DNA of 36,209 bases from a virus (IMGVR_UViG_3300026224_000019:1-36209), one strand, 5' to 3'; shown: positions 1,419 through 11,970, counted from the first letter of the stretch. Numbers and translations: made by a program. The notes: a model not told the origin generated them from the sequence alone.

Positions 1419-3899
1419 TTAAAAATCAGTCTGATTCGGGATCAGTTTTTGTATCGTGGCTGTAACGTATTTCGCCTGGTGACGGGCATCATCCAGCGCA
1501 TGGTGGCGCACGCCTTCAAATGGAATAACTGTTCTGGCATCGAAGCCGATAGTTTTTCCCAGTTCAACGATTGTACGTACATCGCGATCGTTGTAGTAAC
1601 GCCACGGGCAGGGGATGTTCAGGCGTTCGTACGAGGTTCGTAAAATAGTGTTGTCGAAAGTTGCACCATTGCCCCATACCTGAACGAATTTTTCATCTGA
1701 GTATTCGTTGATGAACTCCCGAAACCGCGAAAGGGCATCCTTCAGTTTTACCTGGTCTGTTAAAATGGCAGCTCTGGCTTCACTGGACTGCTTCAGCCAC
1801 CATTCGATGGTGCCACCGTCAGGAACAGCCCCTGTATTCATTGCGTCAGTCAGACTGATAACGATATAAAATACTGGCCCGATTTCCCCTGTTTGTGGGT
1901 CGAAGAAAACCGCACCAATAACCACGATGGGCGCATTGGCGTTGGTTCCCATTGTTTCAAGGTCGATCATCAGGTGGTACCACACTCTGCTGGTGGATGT
2001 GATAATGTGATGACCGTTCACCGCAATTAAGGGATCTGCCGTCTCGCCAGTTTTATTATCGCTGGCGTGGTCCTGAGCGCTGCCAGCATTCTTCTTGTGT
2101 GAATGTTCAGCGCCTTCCATTTCCTCCGGATCATCTTCCTGAACTTCAACCTGATACTCTTCATCGAATGTTTCCTGGTATGTTGCGTCGCCCATCACCG
2201 CGCCACAATCAGGGCAGTTGCCGCCGCCGGTTTGACCGCAGGCGGTGCAGACTTTTTCCGGTTCCTGTTGCGCTACTGGCTCAGGTTGTTTCGTTTCTGG
2301 CTCGTTTTGTAACGCATTTGGGCCGTTTTGTTCCGCTTTCTGGTCGTTCTGTTCCGTTTCTTGCTGGTTCTGATTCACTGAATCGCGGGTTTCAATCCCC
2401 TTCACCCATTTCGGATCATTCGGGTCGCTAATCCCTGCAACAAATTCACCACGTGATACAGCAAGCAACTTATCGGCGTCAGGCTGGCTGATATTGGCTG
2501 CCTGCATAATTTTGTTTACTTCGTCAGCGGTAACTTTTACCGGCTCTGGTTGTACGGTCGTGTCAGATGCACCAGTATTTTGTTGTGAACCTGAGTACGT
2601 GCCGTTTTTACGTGCGAAGTATTCCTCTTTTGTGATTTCCGTAGCTCCCAAAGCCAGCGCTTTTTCCAGACCAGAAAGTTTGTTTGCACGACCATATTTT
2701 TCGCCATCCTTATCGGTGAAAAGGAAGTAGAACGGCCCCTCACGCTCTACAGATGGTTCAGTTTCCAGCGTGCTTTCATTTTTTTGGGTATCAGATACTT
2801 CAGTTTCCACTGCATCAGTTTGTGCTGCTGACGGCTGGAGAATATCAGCAGTGCTCTGGTCTGTTTCTTCATCCTCAAACACGCCCTTTGTCGCCAGGTA
2901 TTCAGTGATGTATTTGTTCAGTGCCACGGGATCCTTGTGAATGTCGAGCGGACGCTCACGGACAAGACCAAAAATAGTCTGACGGTTGTAGCGAATGGCA
3001 TCAGGCTGTTTGCGCATTGATGCGGAAATGCGCTTCCAGTCTTCGCGGTCTTTGGCGATAACTTCATTTTCTGCCCAGCGAAGGATGTTACCGTCAATGC
3101 TTCCGGGGTCCGTATCACCAGGCCAGAGATAGCAGGCCAGCTCCCTGTCCAGCGCTTTCCATGTCTGCTTATATTCGCGACGAATGGCAGCAGTGGCAGG
3201 GTTGATTTTTTCTGCTGAGTTTTCAGTGTGCTGTCGGTTGACTCTGACGCGGGCAAGGTCAACAACAGACGTGTATTTTCCAGTCTCTTTGCGCTCTGCG
3301 TCCTGCCGTTTTTTCCAGTTACGTAATTCAGCCTGAATTTCGGGCCATTTGGCACTCGGCTTGCATTTGTGCTTAACCCATCCGATAGCGAACAGTTTGC
3401 GTTCCGGATACATAGCGTTAATTTCAGGCGTTTTCATCAATGCCTCAACGATATGCCCGTCGAATGTTGCCATGTCCTCCTGCAACAATTCCTGTGCACT
3501 AATCACCATATCAACGGTGATGTTTTCACATGTACCGAACTTAACCAGGACCGCGTTCTGTACTTCAAGGGACAGCTTGTCAAAATTGACGTTCATCGGA
3601 TCGGATTCTGGTTCGACCGGAATAAAGGAAGCGGATTCCTCATCCCAGCGGTTTTCCAGCATATATTCGGTATCCCAGGAGTCGATGGCAGGGCGGGGCA
3701 TGCCGGGTTTATCCTCGCAGACAAGAAATTTATAAGCGCAGTCCTGAGCAGCCGGATATTGCTCCAGGAATTGCCAGGTAAATTTGGCACGGGCGCGACG
3801 TTCGTCGCCGGCTTCAATGGCAGTGGCTACAGCGACTGCACCTTCTTCCTTTATTGCCTGTTCGTCCGGAATGGCGGCGCAAATAAAGACTTTACTCAT
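1419..3899 (-). CDS. Large prophage exonuclease (826 aa): C-terminal DnaQ-like 3'-5' exonuclease domain, N-terminal ~550 aa of unknown function with a Cys4 zinc-ribbon motif
   Basis: C-terminal MIDLETMGTNANAPIVVIGAVFFD ... HHALDDARHQAKY matches the DEDDh exonuclease motif pattern. CTACGQ...CPDCG zinc ribbon mid-protein. Occupies the recombination-gene position next to int/xis. Confidence 0.7.
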   Translation of the reverse strand: MSKVFICAAIPDEQAIKEEGAVAVATAIEAGDERRARAKFTWQFLEQYPAAQDCAYKFLVCEDKPGMPRPAIDSWDTEYMLENRWDEESASFIPVEPESDPMNVNFDKLSLEVQNAVLVKFGTCENITVDMVISAQELLQEDMATFDGHIVEALMKTPEINAMYPERKLFAIGWVKHKCKPSAKWPEIQAELRNWKKRQDAERKETGKYTSVVDLARVRVNRQHTENSAEKINPATAAIRREYKQTWKALDRELACYLWPGDTDPGSIDGNILRWAENEVIAKDREDWKRISASMRKQPDAIRYNRQTIFGLVRERPLDIHKDPVALNKYITEYLATKGVFEDEETDQSTADILQPSAAQTDAVETEVSDTQKNESTLETEPSVEREGPFYFLFTDKDGEKYGRANKLSGLEKALALGATEITKEEYFARKNGTYSGSQQNTGASDTTVQPEPVKVTADEVNKIMQAANISQPDADKLLAVSRGEFVAGISDPNDPKWVKGIETRDSVNQNQQETEQNDQKAEQNGPNALQNEPETKQPEPVAQQEPEKVCTACGQTGGGNCPDCGAVMGDATYQETFDEEYQVEVQEDDPEEMEGAEHSHKKNAGSAQDHASDNKTGETADPLIAVNGHHIITSTSRVWYHLMIDLETMGTNANAPIVVIGAVFFDPQTGEIGPVFYIVISLTDAMNTGAVPDGGTIEWWLKQSSEARAAILTDQVKLKDALSRFREFINEYSDEKFVQVWGNGATFDNTILRTSYERLNIPCPWRYYNDRDVRTIVELGKTIGFDARTVIPFEGVRHHALDDARHQAKYVTATIQKLIPNQTDF

Positions 3900-3990: not shown

Positions 3991-4185
3991 TCAGGATTTT
4001 GATGCAGGTGTTTCAGTAAAATTCTGGTGTATGATTTTTTCTACCGGATAACAGTTACCGGGAATTTTCTGTTCTTTCATTGCGGCAATACATTCCTCCT
4101 TGCTGTCATAAATACCCGTTACCATATCAACCGGTTCGCTGTTAGCCATAAAAACAAGCATGACCGAGGCCCACATTACACCCAT
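3991..4185 (-). CDS. Small membrane protein (64 aa), possibly YdfD-like
   Basis: Hydrophobic N-terminus (MGVMWASVMLVFMA). Lies immediately downstream of the DicB-like gene, the position of ydfD in Qin. The homology call is from memory only. Confidence 0.45.
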   Translation of the reverse strand: MGVMWASVMLVFMANSEPVDMVTGIYDSKEECIAAMKEQKIPGNCYPVEKIIHQNFTETPASKS

Positions 4186-4373
4186 GATTTTTTCTCCTGG
4201 AAAATGCCAAGTTTAAGAAGGGCGAGTCGGGAAAGCATGGAATTATCATTGAGAAGATAAGGTTCATATTTCCTCATATTAATGGCATCCTCAGTGAAGT
4301 CTTTATTGCTGAGCTGAATGCCAATATCAAAACAACCTTCAGATGTATTAACGTTTGGTAATAACGTTTCCAT
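4176..4373 (-). CDS. dicB: DicB-like cell-division inhibitor (65 aa)
   Basis: N-terminus METLLPNVNTSEGCFDIGIQLSN...FTEDAIN matches my recollection of E. coli DicB (MKTLLPNVNTSEGCFEIG...FTEDAINKRK). GAGGA RBS 8 nt upstream. Lies downstream of the DicF-like RNA as in Qin. Confidence 0.75.
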   Translation of the reverse strand: METLLPNVNTSEGCFDIGIQLSNKDFTEDAINMRKYEPYLLNDNSMLSRLALLKLGIFQEKKSWV

Positions 4374-4390
4374 TATCGCGTCCTCAACAA

Positions 4391-4530
4391 TGAATTTTGT
4401 GATGCGGTGCCTGGTGCCTCCAGGTGACGTTAACCAGTTAACAATTAACGCCGGAGTATTTCACCCATAAGGTTGCTTGTTTTAACTGTTCCGCGTGCGC
4501 TGAGCCGCATTCACCGCATCACAAAATTCA
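4391..4530. repeat. Perfect 19-bp inverted repeat (TGAATTTTGTGATGCGGTG / CACCGCATCACAAAATTCA) flanking 102 bp; candidate RNA duplex / processing site
   Basis: Arms at 4391-4409 and 4512-4530 are exact reverse complements. Inner region holds nested palindromes (CCTGGTGCCTCCAGG, GTTAACCAGTTAAC). Confidence 0.8.
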
Positions 4531-4590
4531 CTTTAAAAAGGGCGGACATCAGCCAGCAATGAAACTGATGCCGCCAAAAGGTAATCAACA
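4531..4590 (-). ncRNA. dicF: DicF-like small RNA with intrinsic terminator
   Basis: Minus-strand sequence ...UUUUGGCGGCAUCAGUUUCAUUGCUGGCUGAUGUCCGCCCUUUUU resembles E. coli DicF as I remember it (UUUGGCGGUAUCAGUUUU...GCCGCCCUUUUU). GC stem (4540-4552 / 4565-4575) followed by a U-run. Located upstream of the dicB-like gene. The 5' end is approximate. Confidence 0.6.
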
Positions 4591-4915
4591 TGGGTTGTTG
4601 CAGCGGGGTTGTCACTCAGGCGTATGGTCAACCTGACAACCCGGTGTTATCTCGAGGAAAAGATAGCCTCGCCATACTTACCGCCGCGCCATTTCGCGGA
4701 TTGCCACAACCGGAAGCGCACGGTCGAAGATGCCGGTGGCACGCAACAGAGGGAGAAATAACTTCGCCGTGCGCTTTCGCGTTATGCCCTGACTTTTCAG
4801 GGATATATCCTTTCAGTAAACTGTCAGTGCCGGATTCTTATCCGTGTCCGGCGCACGACAACACGCTGTCACGTGTGGTCTCCATTCTCAACCAGTAACC
4901 TCAATGGAGGATAAA

Positions 4916-5158
4916 ATGCCAACAAAACTATGCCCAGCCTGTAATTCTTCGTCTGATTTCTCAGAGAAGAATGGTTATTATATTTTTGATTGCCCGAAAC
5001 ACGGTGTATTCCATATATCAAAACTTGATGGGATATTTGTGAAACCAAGTCAGTATCAGGCTGACAAGTTAAATAAAATTCTCAATGCCAAAAGAGCGCC
5101 AGGCTATACGGGACCTATAGAGGTTTTACCGCGTCCTCGTCTTGTGGAACTGGATTAA
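4916..5158 (+). CDS. Hypothetical zinc-ribbon protein (80 aa)
   Basis: ATG at 4916 preceded by GGAGG with 6-nt spacing. CPAC...CPKH motif. The only plus-strand gene in the leftward early region. Its 3' end overlaps the convergent 186-aa gene by 44 nt. Confidence 0.55.
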   Translation: MPTKLCPACNSSSDFSEKNGYYIFDCPKHGVFHISKLDGIFVKPSQYQADKLNKILNAKRAPGYTGPIEVLPRPRLVELD

Positions 5159-5675
5159 ACCAGTGCTCCTGAATCGCTCGTATTTTTACCCTCGGATGAT
5201 TGCCGGGGGTGATTATTAATTCTGGCGGACATGGTTCTCCATTATGACAAATTGCGCTATAAGTGAAATCAGCCAGAGCAGTGCCGGTCATTATTATTCC
5301 GAACTTATCAAGCAGCGAGAGCAAATCACGCAAACAGGAGTTATCAGTTTTTTCGTTATAAAATGAATCCCCTGATGCAGAGAGCATTTCACCTCGCTCT
5401 GCGATGCGTTTGACCATTTTCCAGAATTCTTTTTTTGAATACTTTTCCTCGACATAAAAACCCATCGCCGAGGCAATCCGCTTTGCAGCTTCTTCAGTAT
5501 CCTGGTTGTTTGTTACCGAAACAGAGTACAATCCGATAAACGCATCGCGCACATTACGAGCCATATTATCAGTGTCTTTTTTCGTTACCGATTCCAATGC
5601 AAGTTCGTTCAGGTGTTGACGGAGTGTCTGTGCTGCAATCTCCTGGATTGATAGTGGTAAATCTTTAAATTCCAT
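5115..5675 (-). CDS. Hypothetical protein (186 aa), leftward early operon
   Basis: Complete ORF; ATG 11 nt downstream of the YdfB-like stop. No motif recognised. Confidence 0.6.
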   Translation of the reverse strand: MEFKDLPLSIQEIAAQTLRQHLNELALESVTKKDTDNMARNVRDAFIGLYSVSVTNNQDTEEAAKRIASAMGFYVEEKYSKKEFWKMVKRIAERGEMLSASGDSFYNEKTDNSCLRDLLSLLDKFGIIMTGTALADFTYSAICHNGEPCPPELIITPGNHPRVKIRAIQEHWFNPVPQDEDAVKPL

Positions 5676-5816: not shown

Positions 5817-5972
5817 TCACTCACCTGAGTTTCTTTCCAGCCAGCGACGGGCACCATTTTCGGTTTTAAACGTTTTGCTTTTGGTATACGTCATCGCGGT
5901 GAACGTACCGTCCTGGTTGGGGAACACGCCACATACCAGAGATTCGCTGTTGCCAAGATCGATAGTATCCAT
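5817..5972 (-). CDS. Small protein (51 aa), YdfA-like (DUF1391-type)
   Basis: Internal ATG (MDTIDLGNSESL...) with GAGGT RBS; matches the size and position of Qin ydfA. The track ORF extends to 6065, but that start has no RBS and sits inside a promoter-like element. Confidence 0.5.
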   Translation of the reverse strand: MDTIDLGNSESLVCGVFPNQDGTFTAMTYTKSKTFKTENGARRWLERNSGE

Positions 5973-6049
5973 GCTGACCTCATTTCCCCTTAACGCCGGG
6001 GTAGCGGAACTGTTTGCTGAGAACACCGTGCGGTGTCTTGATGGATGGT

Positions 6050-6101
6050 AATTTAGTTTTCTCATGAAAATTGGTCAAGTGTTTTTGATGAGAAAACTCA
6101 A
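6050..6101 (-). promoter_or_regulatory. Candidate leftward early promoter and operators (pL/OL-like)
   Basis: Minus strand: TTGACC (6078-6073), 17-nt spacer, TAAATT (6055-6050). Flanked by inverted copies of TGAGAAAACT (6055-6064 reverse, 6089-6098 forward), a motif also present in the OR region. Confidence 0.5.
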
Positions 6102-6165: not shown

Positions 6166-6573
6166 TTATTGATGTTTGTTACGTTTGCGAGCTTCTAGTA
6201 GCTCGGTGAATAGGCGATTAAAATTCTCAACGCGGGCACGGAGTTCGCTGATTTGTGCTTGCTGCTCTGATTTTGGAAGTGCGCGATACAATCGCAACAT
6301 CTCCAACTCATCTTCCGATAAGTCTAAGGCGCTGTTGAGTGCAACTGGTGGATCTGGTGTTTTATCCTCGTCACCAAACAGTATCCAAGTTGGTGAACAT
6401 TGCAATACCTCAGCCAGGCGATGCAAATTTTGCCCGCGCGGGGCTGTATGGTCGCTTTCCCATAGTGAAATTGATGAGCCAGATACGCCAGCAGCTTTGC
6501 TTAAATCGTTTTGACTTAAACCAACCTGTTTGCGTCTTTCTCTAATTCGTTGGCCTAAAGTTTTCTCGTTCAT
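6166..6573 (-). CDS. dicA: Prophage repressor, HTH XRE-family, DicA-like (135 aa from Met18 of the track ORF)
   Basis: GLSQNDLSKAAGVSGSSISLWE helix-turn-helix; VLQCSPTWILFGDEDK and MLRLYRALPKSEQ...RARVENFNRLFTELLEARKR match my recollection of E. coli DicA. Divergent from the Cro-like gene. Confidence 0.8.
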   Translation of the reverse strand: MNEKTLGQRIRERRKQVGLSQNDLSKAAGVSGSSISLWESDHTAPRGQNLHRLAEVLQCSPTWILFGDEDKTPDPPVALNSALDLSEDELEMLRLYRALPKSEQQAQISELRARVENFNRLFTELLEARKRNKHQ

Positions 6574-6594
6574 ATTTAGATATCTTAATAACCC

Positions 6595-6637
6595 TTGACT
6601 TGAGATTCCTTGAGTGATTACCATTGAGAAAACTCAA
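6595..6637 (+). promoter_or_regulatory. Candidate rightward early promoter/operator (pR/OR-like)
   Basis: TTGACT at 6595-6600; TACCAT at 6619-6624; palindromic operator TTGAGAAAACTCAA at 6624-6637; GGAGGGG RBS before the Cro-like ATG at 6651. Confidence 0.45.
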
Positions 6638-6650
6638 CTTTGGAGGGGTG

Positions 6651-6878
6651 ATGTTTAAATCAGACGTAATTAATTTTTATGGGACGAAAGCCAAAGTAGC
6701 GAAAGCTGCTGGTGTTGATCCATCTGCTGTTTCTCAATGGGGAGAACTGGTTCCTGAAGGTCGCGCGATGCGCCTGCAAGAGGCATCTGGCGGGGAACTT
6801 CAGTACGATCCCAAAGTTTATGACGAATATCGTAAGGCAAAGCGTGCGGGGCGGTTGAACAATGAAAATCACCCCTGA
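6651..6878 (+). CDS. Cro-like HTH protein (DicC/YdaS family, 75 aa)
   Basis: Divergent from the repressor across an operator-containing intergenic region. ATG 6651 has a strong RBS. C-terminal motif VPEGRAMRLQEASGGELQYDPKVYDEY. Confidence 0.65.
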   Translation: MFKSDVINFYGTKAKVAKAAGVDPSAVSQWGELVPEGRAMRLQEASGGELQYDPKVYDEYRKAKRAGRLNNENHP

Positions 6879-11524: not shown

Positions 11525-11814
11525 CTGGCCTGAAGCATTCACAACGGTAGGAATTGCGATGGCAGTGGCGCTGGTGGTGTATTCGATTTGCCGCTGGGGA
11601 TAAAAACGGTTTGCGGGAAAAAGGGAGTTAAGTAAAATTGCTGCGGGTGCTTGAGGCTATCTGTCTCAGGCATGAACACCAAAAGGCAGATAGAGAAAAG
11701 CCCCAGTTAACATTACGCGTCCTGCAAGACGCTTAACATTAATCTGAGGCCCAATCTATGTCTCACAAATGTAGGTTAGCCTCTTACGTGCCGAAAGGCA
11801 AGGAGAAGCAGGCT

Positions 11815-11970
11815 ATGAAGCAGCAAAAGGCGATGTTAATCGCCCTGATCGTCATCTGTTTAACCGTCATAGTGACGGCACTGGTAACGAGGAAAGACCT
11901 CTGCGAGGTACGAATCCGAACCGGCCAGACGGAGGTTGCTGTCTTCGTAGACTACGAATCTGAGAAGTAA
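11815..11970 (+). CDS. hokD: Hok/Gef-family type I toxin (51 aa), HokD-like
   Basis: MKQQKAMLIALIVICLTVIVTALVTRKDLCEVRIRTGQTEVAVF is the Hok signature (single TM, conserved Cys, RxxxxEV). AAGGAGAAG RBS. In-frame upstream extension from 11758 could be the mok-like leader frame. Confidence 0.8.
   Translation: MKQQKAMLIALIVICLTVIVTALVTRKDLCEVRIRTGQTEVAVFVDYESEK

Follow-up and report, generated by a model that had tools for sequence, protein, structure and literature searches.

The window analysed in this work is the whole of a 36,209-nucleotide stretch of viral DNA (IMGVR_UViG_3300026224_000019:1-36209), the minus strand of which carries a lambdoid early-left operon of the Qin/dicBF type. This operon contains a long inverted repeat between a DicF-like small RNA and a gene for a DicB-like inhibitor of cell division. 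We describe the RNA helix that the two arms of this repeat are predicted to form, the structured RNA that they enclose, and the probable role of the helix as a processing site for RNase III. The features of the region are the following, in the order of transcription.

4540-4590, minus strand: DicF-like small RNA (Rfam RF00039, homology to K-12 dicF), with a terminator hairpin at 4545-4572 and a U-run to about 4535.
4512-4530, minus strand: 5' arm of the inverted repeat (UGAAUUUUGUGAUGCGGUG), with 2 further bp to 4532; based on the repeat search, the folds, the shuffles and 46 arm-pair variants with compensatory changes.
4410-4511, minus strand: structured RNA core, apparently a divergent STnc100 module, comprising the hairpin P1 (about 4492-4509), a penultimate and a terminal hairpin.
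4410-4424, minus strand: terminal hairpin CCUGG-AGGCA-CCAGG, which abuts the 3' arm.
4391-4409, minus strand: 3' arm (CACCGCAUCACAAAAUUCA), from which pairing runs on to 4389; based on the repeat search, the folds, the shuffles and the variant set.
4381-4385, minus strand: GAGGA, Shine-Dalgarno (SD) sequence of dicB, outside the duplex, separated from the 19-nt arm by 5 nt on its 3' side; AUG at 4371-4373.
4176-4373, minus strand: open reading frame (ORF) of 65 aa for a DicB-like cell-division inhibitor (Pfam PF05358, 111 bits).

A long helix downstream of the DicF-like RNA

A repeat search of the window found two 19-nt arms, at 4391-4409 and 4512-4530, which are 100% complementary and have 102 nt between them, exactly as a preliminary description of this DNA had claimed. 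The exact arm pattern has two matches in the window, one on either strand, and was found in none of 100 dinucleotide-preserving shuffles, even with 2 mismatches tolerated. The inverted repeat was therewith confirmed to be real and far from chance. When the minus-strand RNA was folded, the expected 19-bp helix was present in the minimum free energy and centroid structures alike and extended to 21 bp (4532-4512 with 4409-4389) by one G.U and one A-U pair. Region 4360-4620 (261 nt, minus strand) folded with a free energy of -92.4 kcal/mol (z -4.6), the element by itself with -58.5 kcal/mol (z -7.0), and the duplex with about -37 kcal/mol. With its 19 Watson-Crick pairs, one G.U and one A-U, the helix has the length of an RNase III substrate, i.e., about two helical turns (about 20 bp) of largely uninterrupted double-stranded RNA. 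The 5' arm had been described as following the DicF U-run directly; it does lie 3' of the U-run, but 4 nt (AAAG) intervene. Similarly, the 3' arm does end shortly before the ribosome-binding site, GAGGA being found downstream of it, with the correction that 5 nt (UUGUU) separate the two.

The DicF-like RNA was identified in a permissive local search, where it matched the full RF00039 model (positions 1-52) with 34.1 bits and an E value of 1.3e-5. The match was full-length, but the score missed the gathering threshold (48 bits). When the whole window was searched at gathering thresholds, sok was the sole Rfam match; DicF and STnc100 surfaced only in the permissive local search. A terminator-like site (4572-4545) with a T-run was detected in the DicF-like RNA, and its placement is that of a dicF, with dicB downstream and genes for a CI-like repressor and a P22_Cro/DicC-like protein upstream. 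Judging from sequence and placement, the DicF-like RNA at 4540-4590(-) appears to be real but divergent. No promoter-like site was found within 4300-5000, and the 3' arm is followed by no terminator, dicB coming directly next.

Conservation and covariation of the arms

Public genome, viral and metagenome collections were scanned with two conserved motifs. The subfamily sharing the core of the window comprised 216 copies (103 unique sequences, 53 distinct arm pairs), and the set of DicF-type arm pairs 46 distinct variants (205 copies). All of these 46 except L246 form a helix of at least 19 bp, with duplex energies of -26 to -40 kcal/mol, which is either continuous or made of 10 bp, a bulged A and 9-12 bp. 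In L246, the outer sequence of the stem is unrelated and still pairs, the stem having 7 + 8 bp on the two sides of a 1x1 loop (about -24 kcal/mol). Pairing in register was seen, over 21 pairs, in 98.6% of the cells, compared with 31-51% when the partner strand was shifted by 1-3 nt. Two-sided compensatory changes accounted for 11 cells and one-sided changes that keep pairing for 56, while 14 were broken. Independent compensations from A-U to G-C and from C-G to U-A were found in L018, L013 and L172, and further independent ones from U-A to G-C in L166 and from U-A to C-G in L172 and L013. The preliminary description had staked its reading on arms that are conserved and co-vary in homologous loci, and this is what we observed.

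On the DicF strand, G.U pairs greatly outnumbered A.C combinations among the 46 variants (79 vs 5), which indicates that pairing acts in the RNA of that strand, and not in DNA or in an antisense transcript. The pairing is maintained by selection in the transcribed strand. The perfect duplex was the commonest allele sampled (13 unique sequences vs 4 of the K-12 type); it is thus the common form, of which K-12 carries a wobble variant.

The counterpart in K-12 Qin and its mapped RNA ends

Comparison with the dicF-dicB region of K-12 gave the anticipated result: in Qin, homologous arms occupy identical positions (L001 2445-2463 and 2574-2592) and differ by having U.G and G.U at two adjacent pairs. 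The identity between the window and K-12 Qin is 84% over the 261-nt region. The RNase III dependence and the RNA ends in K-12 are taken from the literature. Passages of two papers (Balasubramanian et al. 2016 and a 2022 review; PMC5069750 and PMC9438474, both citing Faubladier, Cam and Bouche 1990) describe how RNase III processes dicBF RNA of full length to a 72-nt DicF in K-12. As dicF is annotated at L001 2383-2435 (53 nt), the 72-nt RNA would end at 2454, i.e., at position 10 of the 5' arm. Table S1 of Gordon 2017 contains a site at 1649470, labelled dicF-dicB and flagged as known, with 0/0 spanning reads in the wild type vs 26 in the rnc mutant; this site lies 8 nt inside (on the core side of) the 5' arm, in the same spacer. 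Furthermore, Adams 2021 detected by Term-seq, under two growth conditions, a 3' end at 1649584, which is 25 nt upstream of the dicB AUG. Because of its Rho score of 0.95 and its intrinsic-terminator score of 1.2, this end is neither Rho-dependent nor due to an intrinsic terminator. It corresponds to L001 2585, which is position 12 of the 3' arm (the end falls between CACUGCAUCACA and AAAUUCA). The two K-12 ends (1649453 and 1649584) are thus on opposite strands of the duplex, with an offset of 3 nt, which differs by no more than 1 nt from the canonical 2-nt stagger of RNase III.

The helix of the window appears from these homologies to be this prophage's version of the K-12 Qin RNase III site downstream of DicF. 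The proposal that it is an RNase III substrate defining a DicF 3' end found support, as the homologous helix of K-12 holds the 72-nt end and the Term-seq end, with an rnc-dependent site in the spacer. An RNase III site 3' of DicF is already established biology for K-12 and not a discovery made here; in this respect our analysis extends the 1990 result to a divergent prophage copy.

Upstream of DicF, we found a second hairpin of the RNase III type:

4711-4779, minus strand: RNase III-type hairpin upstream of DicF (-42.9 kcal/mol, z -3.2).

Its homologue in K-12 is L001 2181-2251; there, the 190-nt DicF species has its 5' end, an end made by RNase III (PMC10448788), in the 3' arm of the hairpin. 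With this hairpin on one side and the long helix on the other, DicF is bracketed by two RNase III-type sites. We also noted in K-12 an abundant Term-seq 3' end at 1649368-1649369 (L001 2370), 13 nt upstream of the DicF 5' end and just past a GGGUUGUCA/UGACAACCC hairpin that is kept in the window at 4606-4642. It probably belongs to the upstream product left by the RNase E cut from which DicF arises.

The RNA enclosed by the helix

The core matched Rfam STnc100 (RF02076) with 40.4 bits (E 2.9e-7, model positions 21-154 of 206) in a permissive search, and related copies gave comparable scores (43 bits for P7, 38 bits for L018). The 8-bp outer helix of the STnc100 model coincides with the inner part of the long duplex. 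We built a non-redundant alignment of 118 sequences (the window and 117 others) and derived its consensus structure with RNAalifold; compensatory changes were present at 13 of the 24 consensus pairs. The consensus consists, in this order, of a closing stem in which GGUG/CACC is invariant, an AAU linker, P1, a variable middle, a covarying penultimate hairpin and a terminal hairpin. The latter has the consensus CCNGG-AGGCA-CCNGG and adjoins the 3' strand of the closing stem. The window has this architecture (GGUG/CACC stem, P1, and a hairpin with an AGGCA loop at the 3' strand), and its P1 carries compensatory swaps of GC for CG. Full-length matches to STnc100 at the curated threshold (52-161 bits) were obtained for 14 of 15 sampled loci of the alignment.

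These data indicate that the 102 nt between the arms, far from being a spacer, form a structured RNA that is conserved, covaries and is related to STnc100, and that the long duplex is the lengthened closing stem of this embedded STnc100-family RNA. We also observed that genuine STnc100 genes often occur in tandem and beside tRNA gene clusters (L132 2265-3380, with five hits in L132, L138 3121-3798, and others).

Free-standing and embedded copies

Over the family as a whole, the gap-free closing stem mostly has 6-10 bp and reaches at least 15 bp in only 19 of 244 copies; 18 of these 19 are flanked by DicF upstream and dicB downstream. Copies of the kilR type are called at 10 bp in the gap-free scan owing to a single bulged A, while duplex folding gives their full helix. 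Such a long helix with one bulged A was found in the DicF- or KilS-linked copies that precede kilR, an Ash-family gene and others. The copy in the Rac prophage of K-12 is located as follows.

L457 1730-2003, minus strand (NC_000913.3 1418229-1418502): KilS-helix-core-kilR region of K-12 Rac.

There, KilS ends in a DicF-like terminator (39 bits with Rfam DicF), after which come AAAG, the helix, an STnc100-like core and kilR. KilS was reported to have its own promoter (PMC8175672), and DicF is not mentioned in the paper on KilS (Bar et al. 2021, PMC8175672). Neither an RNase III nor a Term-seq signal was reported inside the Rac helix in the data of Gordon 2017 and Adams 2021; the Gordon 2017 site at 1418510 is upstream of KilS and outside the helix. 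In L018, L013 and L246, which have no DicF, the long helix comes directly after the stop codon that ends an upstream ORF. A core of the same subfamily, at about 90% identity, was also found in the P1-like phages P7 (L002 2501-2616) and D6 (L003 2501-2621), where it follows tRNA genes, directly precedes terB/tciA and has a stem of only 8-9 bp.

The preliminary description had read the duplex as a link between DicF and dicB. The helix does join the 3' side of DicF to the dicB leader, but it also occurs without DicF (L018, L013, L246) or without dicB (before kilR, before an Ash-like gene and at other junctions). Extension of the stem thus appears, from the copies compared, to go with most copies that are embedded between cistrons, and not with the DicF-dicB pair as such.

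The free-standing set (151 unique copies) has signals of a different kind. A TANNNT hexamer starts at -17 from the last G of the stem in 59 of the 151, and at -20 or -18 in 32 more; A is found at -16 in 78% and T at -40 in 61%. These signals fit a sigma-70 promoter that would start transcription at the closing stem. A terminator-like site is present within 130 nt downstream in 73 of the 151. The copy of the window lacks the attributes of a stand-alone gene, having neither a promoter-like site (4300-5000) nor a terminator of its own. The outer 5' arm (UGAAUUUU, within 4512-4530) sits at the place of the -10 hexamer of free-standing STnc100 genes and may be a promoter remnant recruited into the helix. 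In another locus (L241, about 3450-3600), dicB is preceded by the 3' half of the module only, with unrelated sequence where the 5' half and the 5' arm would be. This recombinant should lack the RNase III helix.

Proposed processing of the dicBF-type transcript

The 21-bp helix in dicBF-type read-through transcripts is probably an RNase III processing site, at which a staggered cut in the middle of the helix would give DicF a longer 3' end, separate the dicB-ydfD mRNA and, we infer, release the enclosed RNA. Read-through past a leaky DicF terminator would yield a transcript carrying the embedded STnc100-like RNA, the flanks of which would pair over two helical turns; RNase III would then cut both strands near the middle, at the following positions.

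4521/4520, minus strand: predicted RNase III cut in the 5' arm, by homology to the 72-nt DicF 3' end of K-12, within about 1 nt.
4398/4397, minus strand: predicted site of RNase III cleavage in the 3' arm, which would give a 3' end at 4398, by homology to the K-12 Term-seq end 1649584, within about 1 nt.

The cut in the 5' arm would provide DicF with an alternative, longer 3' end (72 nt in K-12, about 70 nt here). The dicB-ydfD mRNA would be left with a leader of about 24 nt, and the enclosed RNA would be set free as a molecule of about 123 nt with a 9-bp closing stem, which is the closing-stem length of free-standing members of the family. Lengthening of the closing stem to about 20 bp would have turned the embedded copies into RNase III substrates.

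More tentatively, and with somewhat less than even confidence, we propose that operons of the dicBF and KilS-kilR types make a third product, an RNA of the STnc100/PasD family that is about 120-130 nt long, has a closing stem of 9 bp and is released by RNase III. The lengthened stem would then replace a promoter and a terminator, and one early-left transcript would give rise to two small RNAs and the mRNA of a cell-division inhibitor. In K-12, the ends at 1649453 and 1649584 would flank such a product.

Several observations weigh against RNase III processing and release of the core. The core of the window is below the curated threshold of RF02076 (40.4 vs 47 bits) and is not full-length. The P7 and D6 copies are embedded in operons and yet have stems of 8-9 bp, so that embedding without extension is possible. 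The evidence from K-12 consists of papers citing Faubladier 1990 and of low read counts (26 reads); the K-12 ends are offset by 3 nt instead of 2. The Term-seq ends reported by Adams 2021 include none at the 72-nt position, none at the DicF terminator and none in the kilR leader of Rac. Finally, the Term-seq end at 1649584 could stem from a promoter-driven module RNA trimmed to its closing stem, and not from RNase III.

Alternative explanations

The preliminary description had also suggested that the duplex gates the translation of dicB. According to this explanation, the duplex keeps the ribosome-binding site inactive, and cleavage or melting turns translation on. RNase III cuts do activate translation in the lambda N and T7 early mRNAs. 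With its end 5 nt upstream of the SD, the helix reaches into the usual footprint of the 30S subunit, and in kilR-type copies it comes within about 1 nt of the SD. Once the predicted cut had been made, opening the region from -20 to +15 cost 11.5 instead of 16.8 kcal/mol, and the probability that the SD is unpaired rose from 0.20 in the uncut to 0.80 in the cut RNA (partition function). The low value in the uncut RNA arises because GAGG can pair weakly with the C/U-run of the terminator, stacked on the helix, but this pairing is missing from the centroid fold. Both the SD (4381-4385) and the AUG (4371-4373) lie 3' of the helix (4389-4409), so that neither of them is sequestered in it. Moreover, other measures changed in the opposite direction after the cut: opening the stretch from the SD to the AUG became more costly (from 5.1 to 8.1 kcal/mol), and the AUG became more paired (unpaired probability from 0.13 to 0.002). 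The helix also precedes at least five unrelated genes with different leaders, and a 5'-monophosphate end could equally hasten the decay of the mRNA of a toxic gene. We consider such a gate unlikely, with perhaps one chance in a few of being correct, and the claim as first made was not supported: SD and AUG are outside the duplex, the accessibility measures are inconsistent, and different leaders stand behind the helix elsewhere. An effect of the duplex on dicB is possible, but its sign is not predictable from conflicting accessibility measures.

The module could also be an independent small RNA gene with its own promoter, of which the outer 5' arm would hold a remnant, and with a 3' end produced by exonuclease trimming, the long helix having no part in its making. 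The -10-like hexamer of free-standing relatives is found exactly at the place of the outer 5' arm, and the K-12 Term-seq end lies 2-3 nt past a closing stem of 9-10 bp, a typical stop for a 3' exonuclease; it was also seen in uninduced cells for which no DicF terminator end was reported. However, no promoter-like site was found in 4300-5000, the corresponding hexamer of the window (GAATTT) is a poor -10, and Ragunathan 2023 (PMC10448788) found no evidence of promoters internal to the operon besides dicBp. This explanation, which we regard as improbable, also leaves unexplained the conservation of the outer 10-12 bp with compensatory changes, as well as the RNase III-dependent 72-nt end of DicF.

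A purely structural stem that is not cut, and that stabilises the enclosed RNA or blocks exonucleases (as a clamp for read-through DicF or for the 5' end of dicB), appears still less probable. Stem-loops at 5' and 3' ends are well-known RNA stabilisers, and the duplex is highly stable (about -37 kcal/mol), but two mapped K-12 ends are inside it on opposite strands, the K-12 region shows an rnc-dependent discontinuity, and a stem of 7-10 bp suffices for the rest of the family.

A DNA-level feature, either a miniature mobile element with the arms as its terminal inverted repeats or a palindrome for protein binding or recombination, is hardly credible: 19-bp inverted repeats do flank a unit of ~140 bp that recurs across many genomes and contexts, including P1-like phages and plasmids, and recombinant junctions occur at or within the element (L241), but the arms covary, unlike a conserved binding site, the 79:5 ratio of G.U to A.C is found on one strand only, which is not expected of a DNA palindrome, the length of the arms ranges from 7 to 22 bp with context, and the interior has covarying hairpins typical of RNA. 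A miniature inverted-repeat transposable element was rejected on the same grounds of variable arm length (7-22 bp), covariation and strand-specific wobble asymmetry. Flanking direct repeats were not noticed in the junctions inspected, where no systematic search for target-site duplications was made.

Two further candidates were discarded. The presence of the core in P7 and D6, and the stacking of the terminal hairpin on the closing stem like that of a T-arm on an acceptor stem, brought a tRNA-like structure to mind. There was, however, no Rfam C4 hit and no ARAGORN hit, and CCA does not consistently follow the stem, which argued against a C4 antisense RNA or RNase P substrate. An antitermination element of the nut/boxB or put type was rejected as well, the element being located downstream of the terminator to be overridden and bearing no resemblance to such sites.

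Gene content of the operon

The gene content around the DicF-dicB region comprises, in addition to the features listed above:

6624-6878, plus strand: P22-Cro/DicC-like gene, divergent.
6166-6624, minus strand: CI/DicA-like helix-turn-helix repressor.
5817-6065, minus strand: YdfA-like DUF1391 gene.
3991-4185, minus strand: YdfD-like DUF1482 protein.
1419-3899, minus strand: 826-aa protein with a C-terminal Rv2179c-like 3'-5' exoribonuclease domain.

The 826-aa protein fills the slot that is occupied by ydfE or recE-like exonuclease genes in Qin and Rac. Related DNA was present in 4642 of 5426 complete E. coli genomes, and the 6-kb neighbourhood had at most about 94% identity to any complete E. 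coli genome. The C-terminal third of the 65-aa DicB-like protein is unlike that of K-12 DicB and also unlike that of the E. coli A36 copy; the dicF-dicB spacer of E. coli A36 is 100% identical to that of the window. An 84-aa ORF without Pfam match at 4904-5158(+) is antisense in the early-left operon, between the ydfA-like genes and DicF, and has a convergent overlap of about 44 nt with the ORF at 5115-5675(-), at the latter's 3' end. Minus-strand transcription to DicF must therefore cross it. A full-length sok antisense RNA at 11645-11820(+) (Rfam RF01794, 120 bits) marks a hok/sok toxin-antitoxin module.

Significance of the element

Three aspects of this work were not found stated in the literature searched, to which the original 1990 dicF paper does not belong. 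The dicF-dicB 'spacer' appears by homology to be a conserved and structured member of the STnc100/PasD RNA family. This cassette also lies between KilS and kilR in Rac and before other early genes. Lastly, the two independently published K-12 ends fit a staggered cut across the helix and an excision of the core RNA. If the core RNA is released and functional, DicF operons, which are present in about 86% of complete E. coli genomes, would encode an overlooked RNA. This would also offer a simple route from a stand-alone small RNA gene to one that is embedded in an operon and processed. In experiments, deleting or reusing the dicF-dicB spacer may remove an RNA and not a neutral sequence. Overall, the element is a testable lead of modest interest and not a new kind of system.

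Comparison with known systems

The DicF 3' site of K-12 Qin is the closest counterpart. It shares with the window the positions of the arms, the presence of dicB downstream and the distance of 36 nt from the 3' arm's first base to the start codon. It differs by the U.G and G.U at adjacent pairs, where the arms of the window are all Watson-Crick, and by an interior of 110 nt instead of 102 nt; the DicF part of the window is divergent (34 bits).

The KilS-kilR region of Rac (Bar et al. 2021, PMC8175672) similarly has a DicF-like terminator hairpin, AAAG, a long helix, an STnc100-like core, an SD and a gene for an FtsZ inhibitor. In contrast with the window, its helix is made of 10 bp, a bulged A and 9-12 bp, the downstream gene is kilR and not dicB, KilS is reported to have its own promoter, and no processing was reported within the helix.

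With STnc100 (RF02076) and PasD, the window shares the GGUG/CACC stem, the AAU linker, P1 and the CCNGG-AGGCA-CCNGG hairpin stacked on the closing stem. Its copy differs from them in being sub-threshold (40.4 vs 47) and limited to model positions 21-154, in having swapped P1 pairs (GC for CG), in lacking its own promoter and terminator, and in having a stem of 19-21 bp vs 7-10 bp. It lies in an early-left operon, while the STnc100/PasD relatives are found in the late region.

In the stems of pre-16S and pre-23S rRNA (rrn), in the early intercistronic sites of T7 and in the lambda N leader, flanking sequences pair over about two helical turns and a cut by RNase III frees an RNA or separates cistrons. 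The rrn stems enclose 1.5-2.9 kb, compared with 102 nt here. As in all these RNase III stems, the flanks of a folded RNA pair over two turns in the window, and by analogy their cleavage would release the RNA that they enclose.

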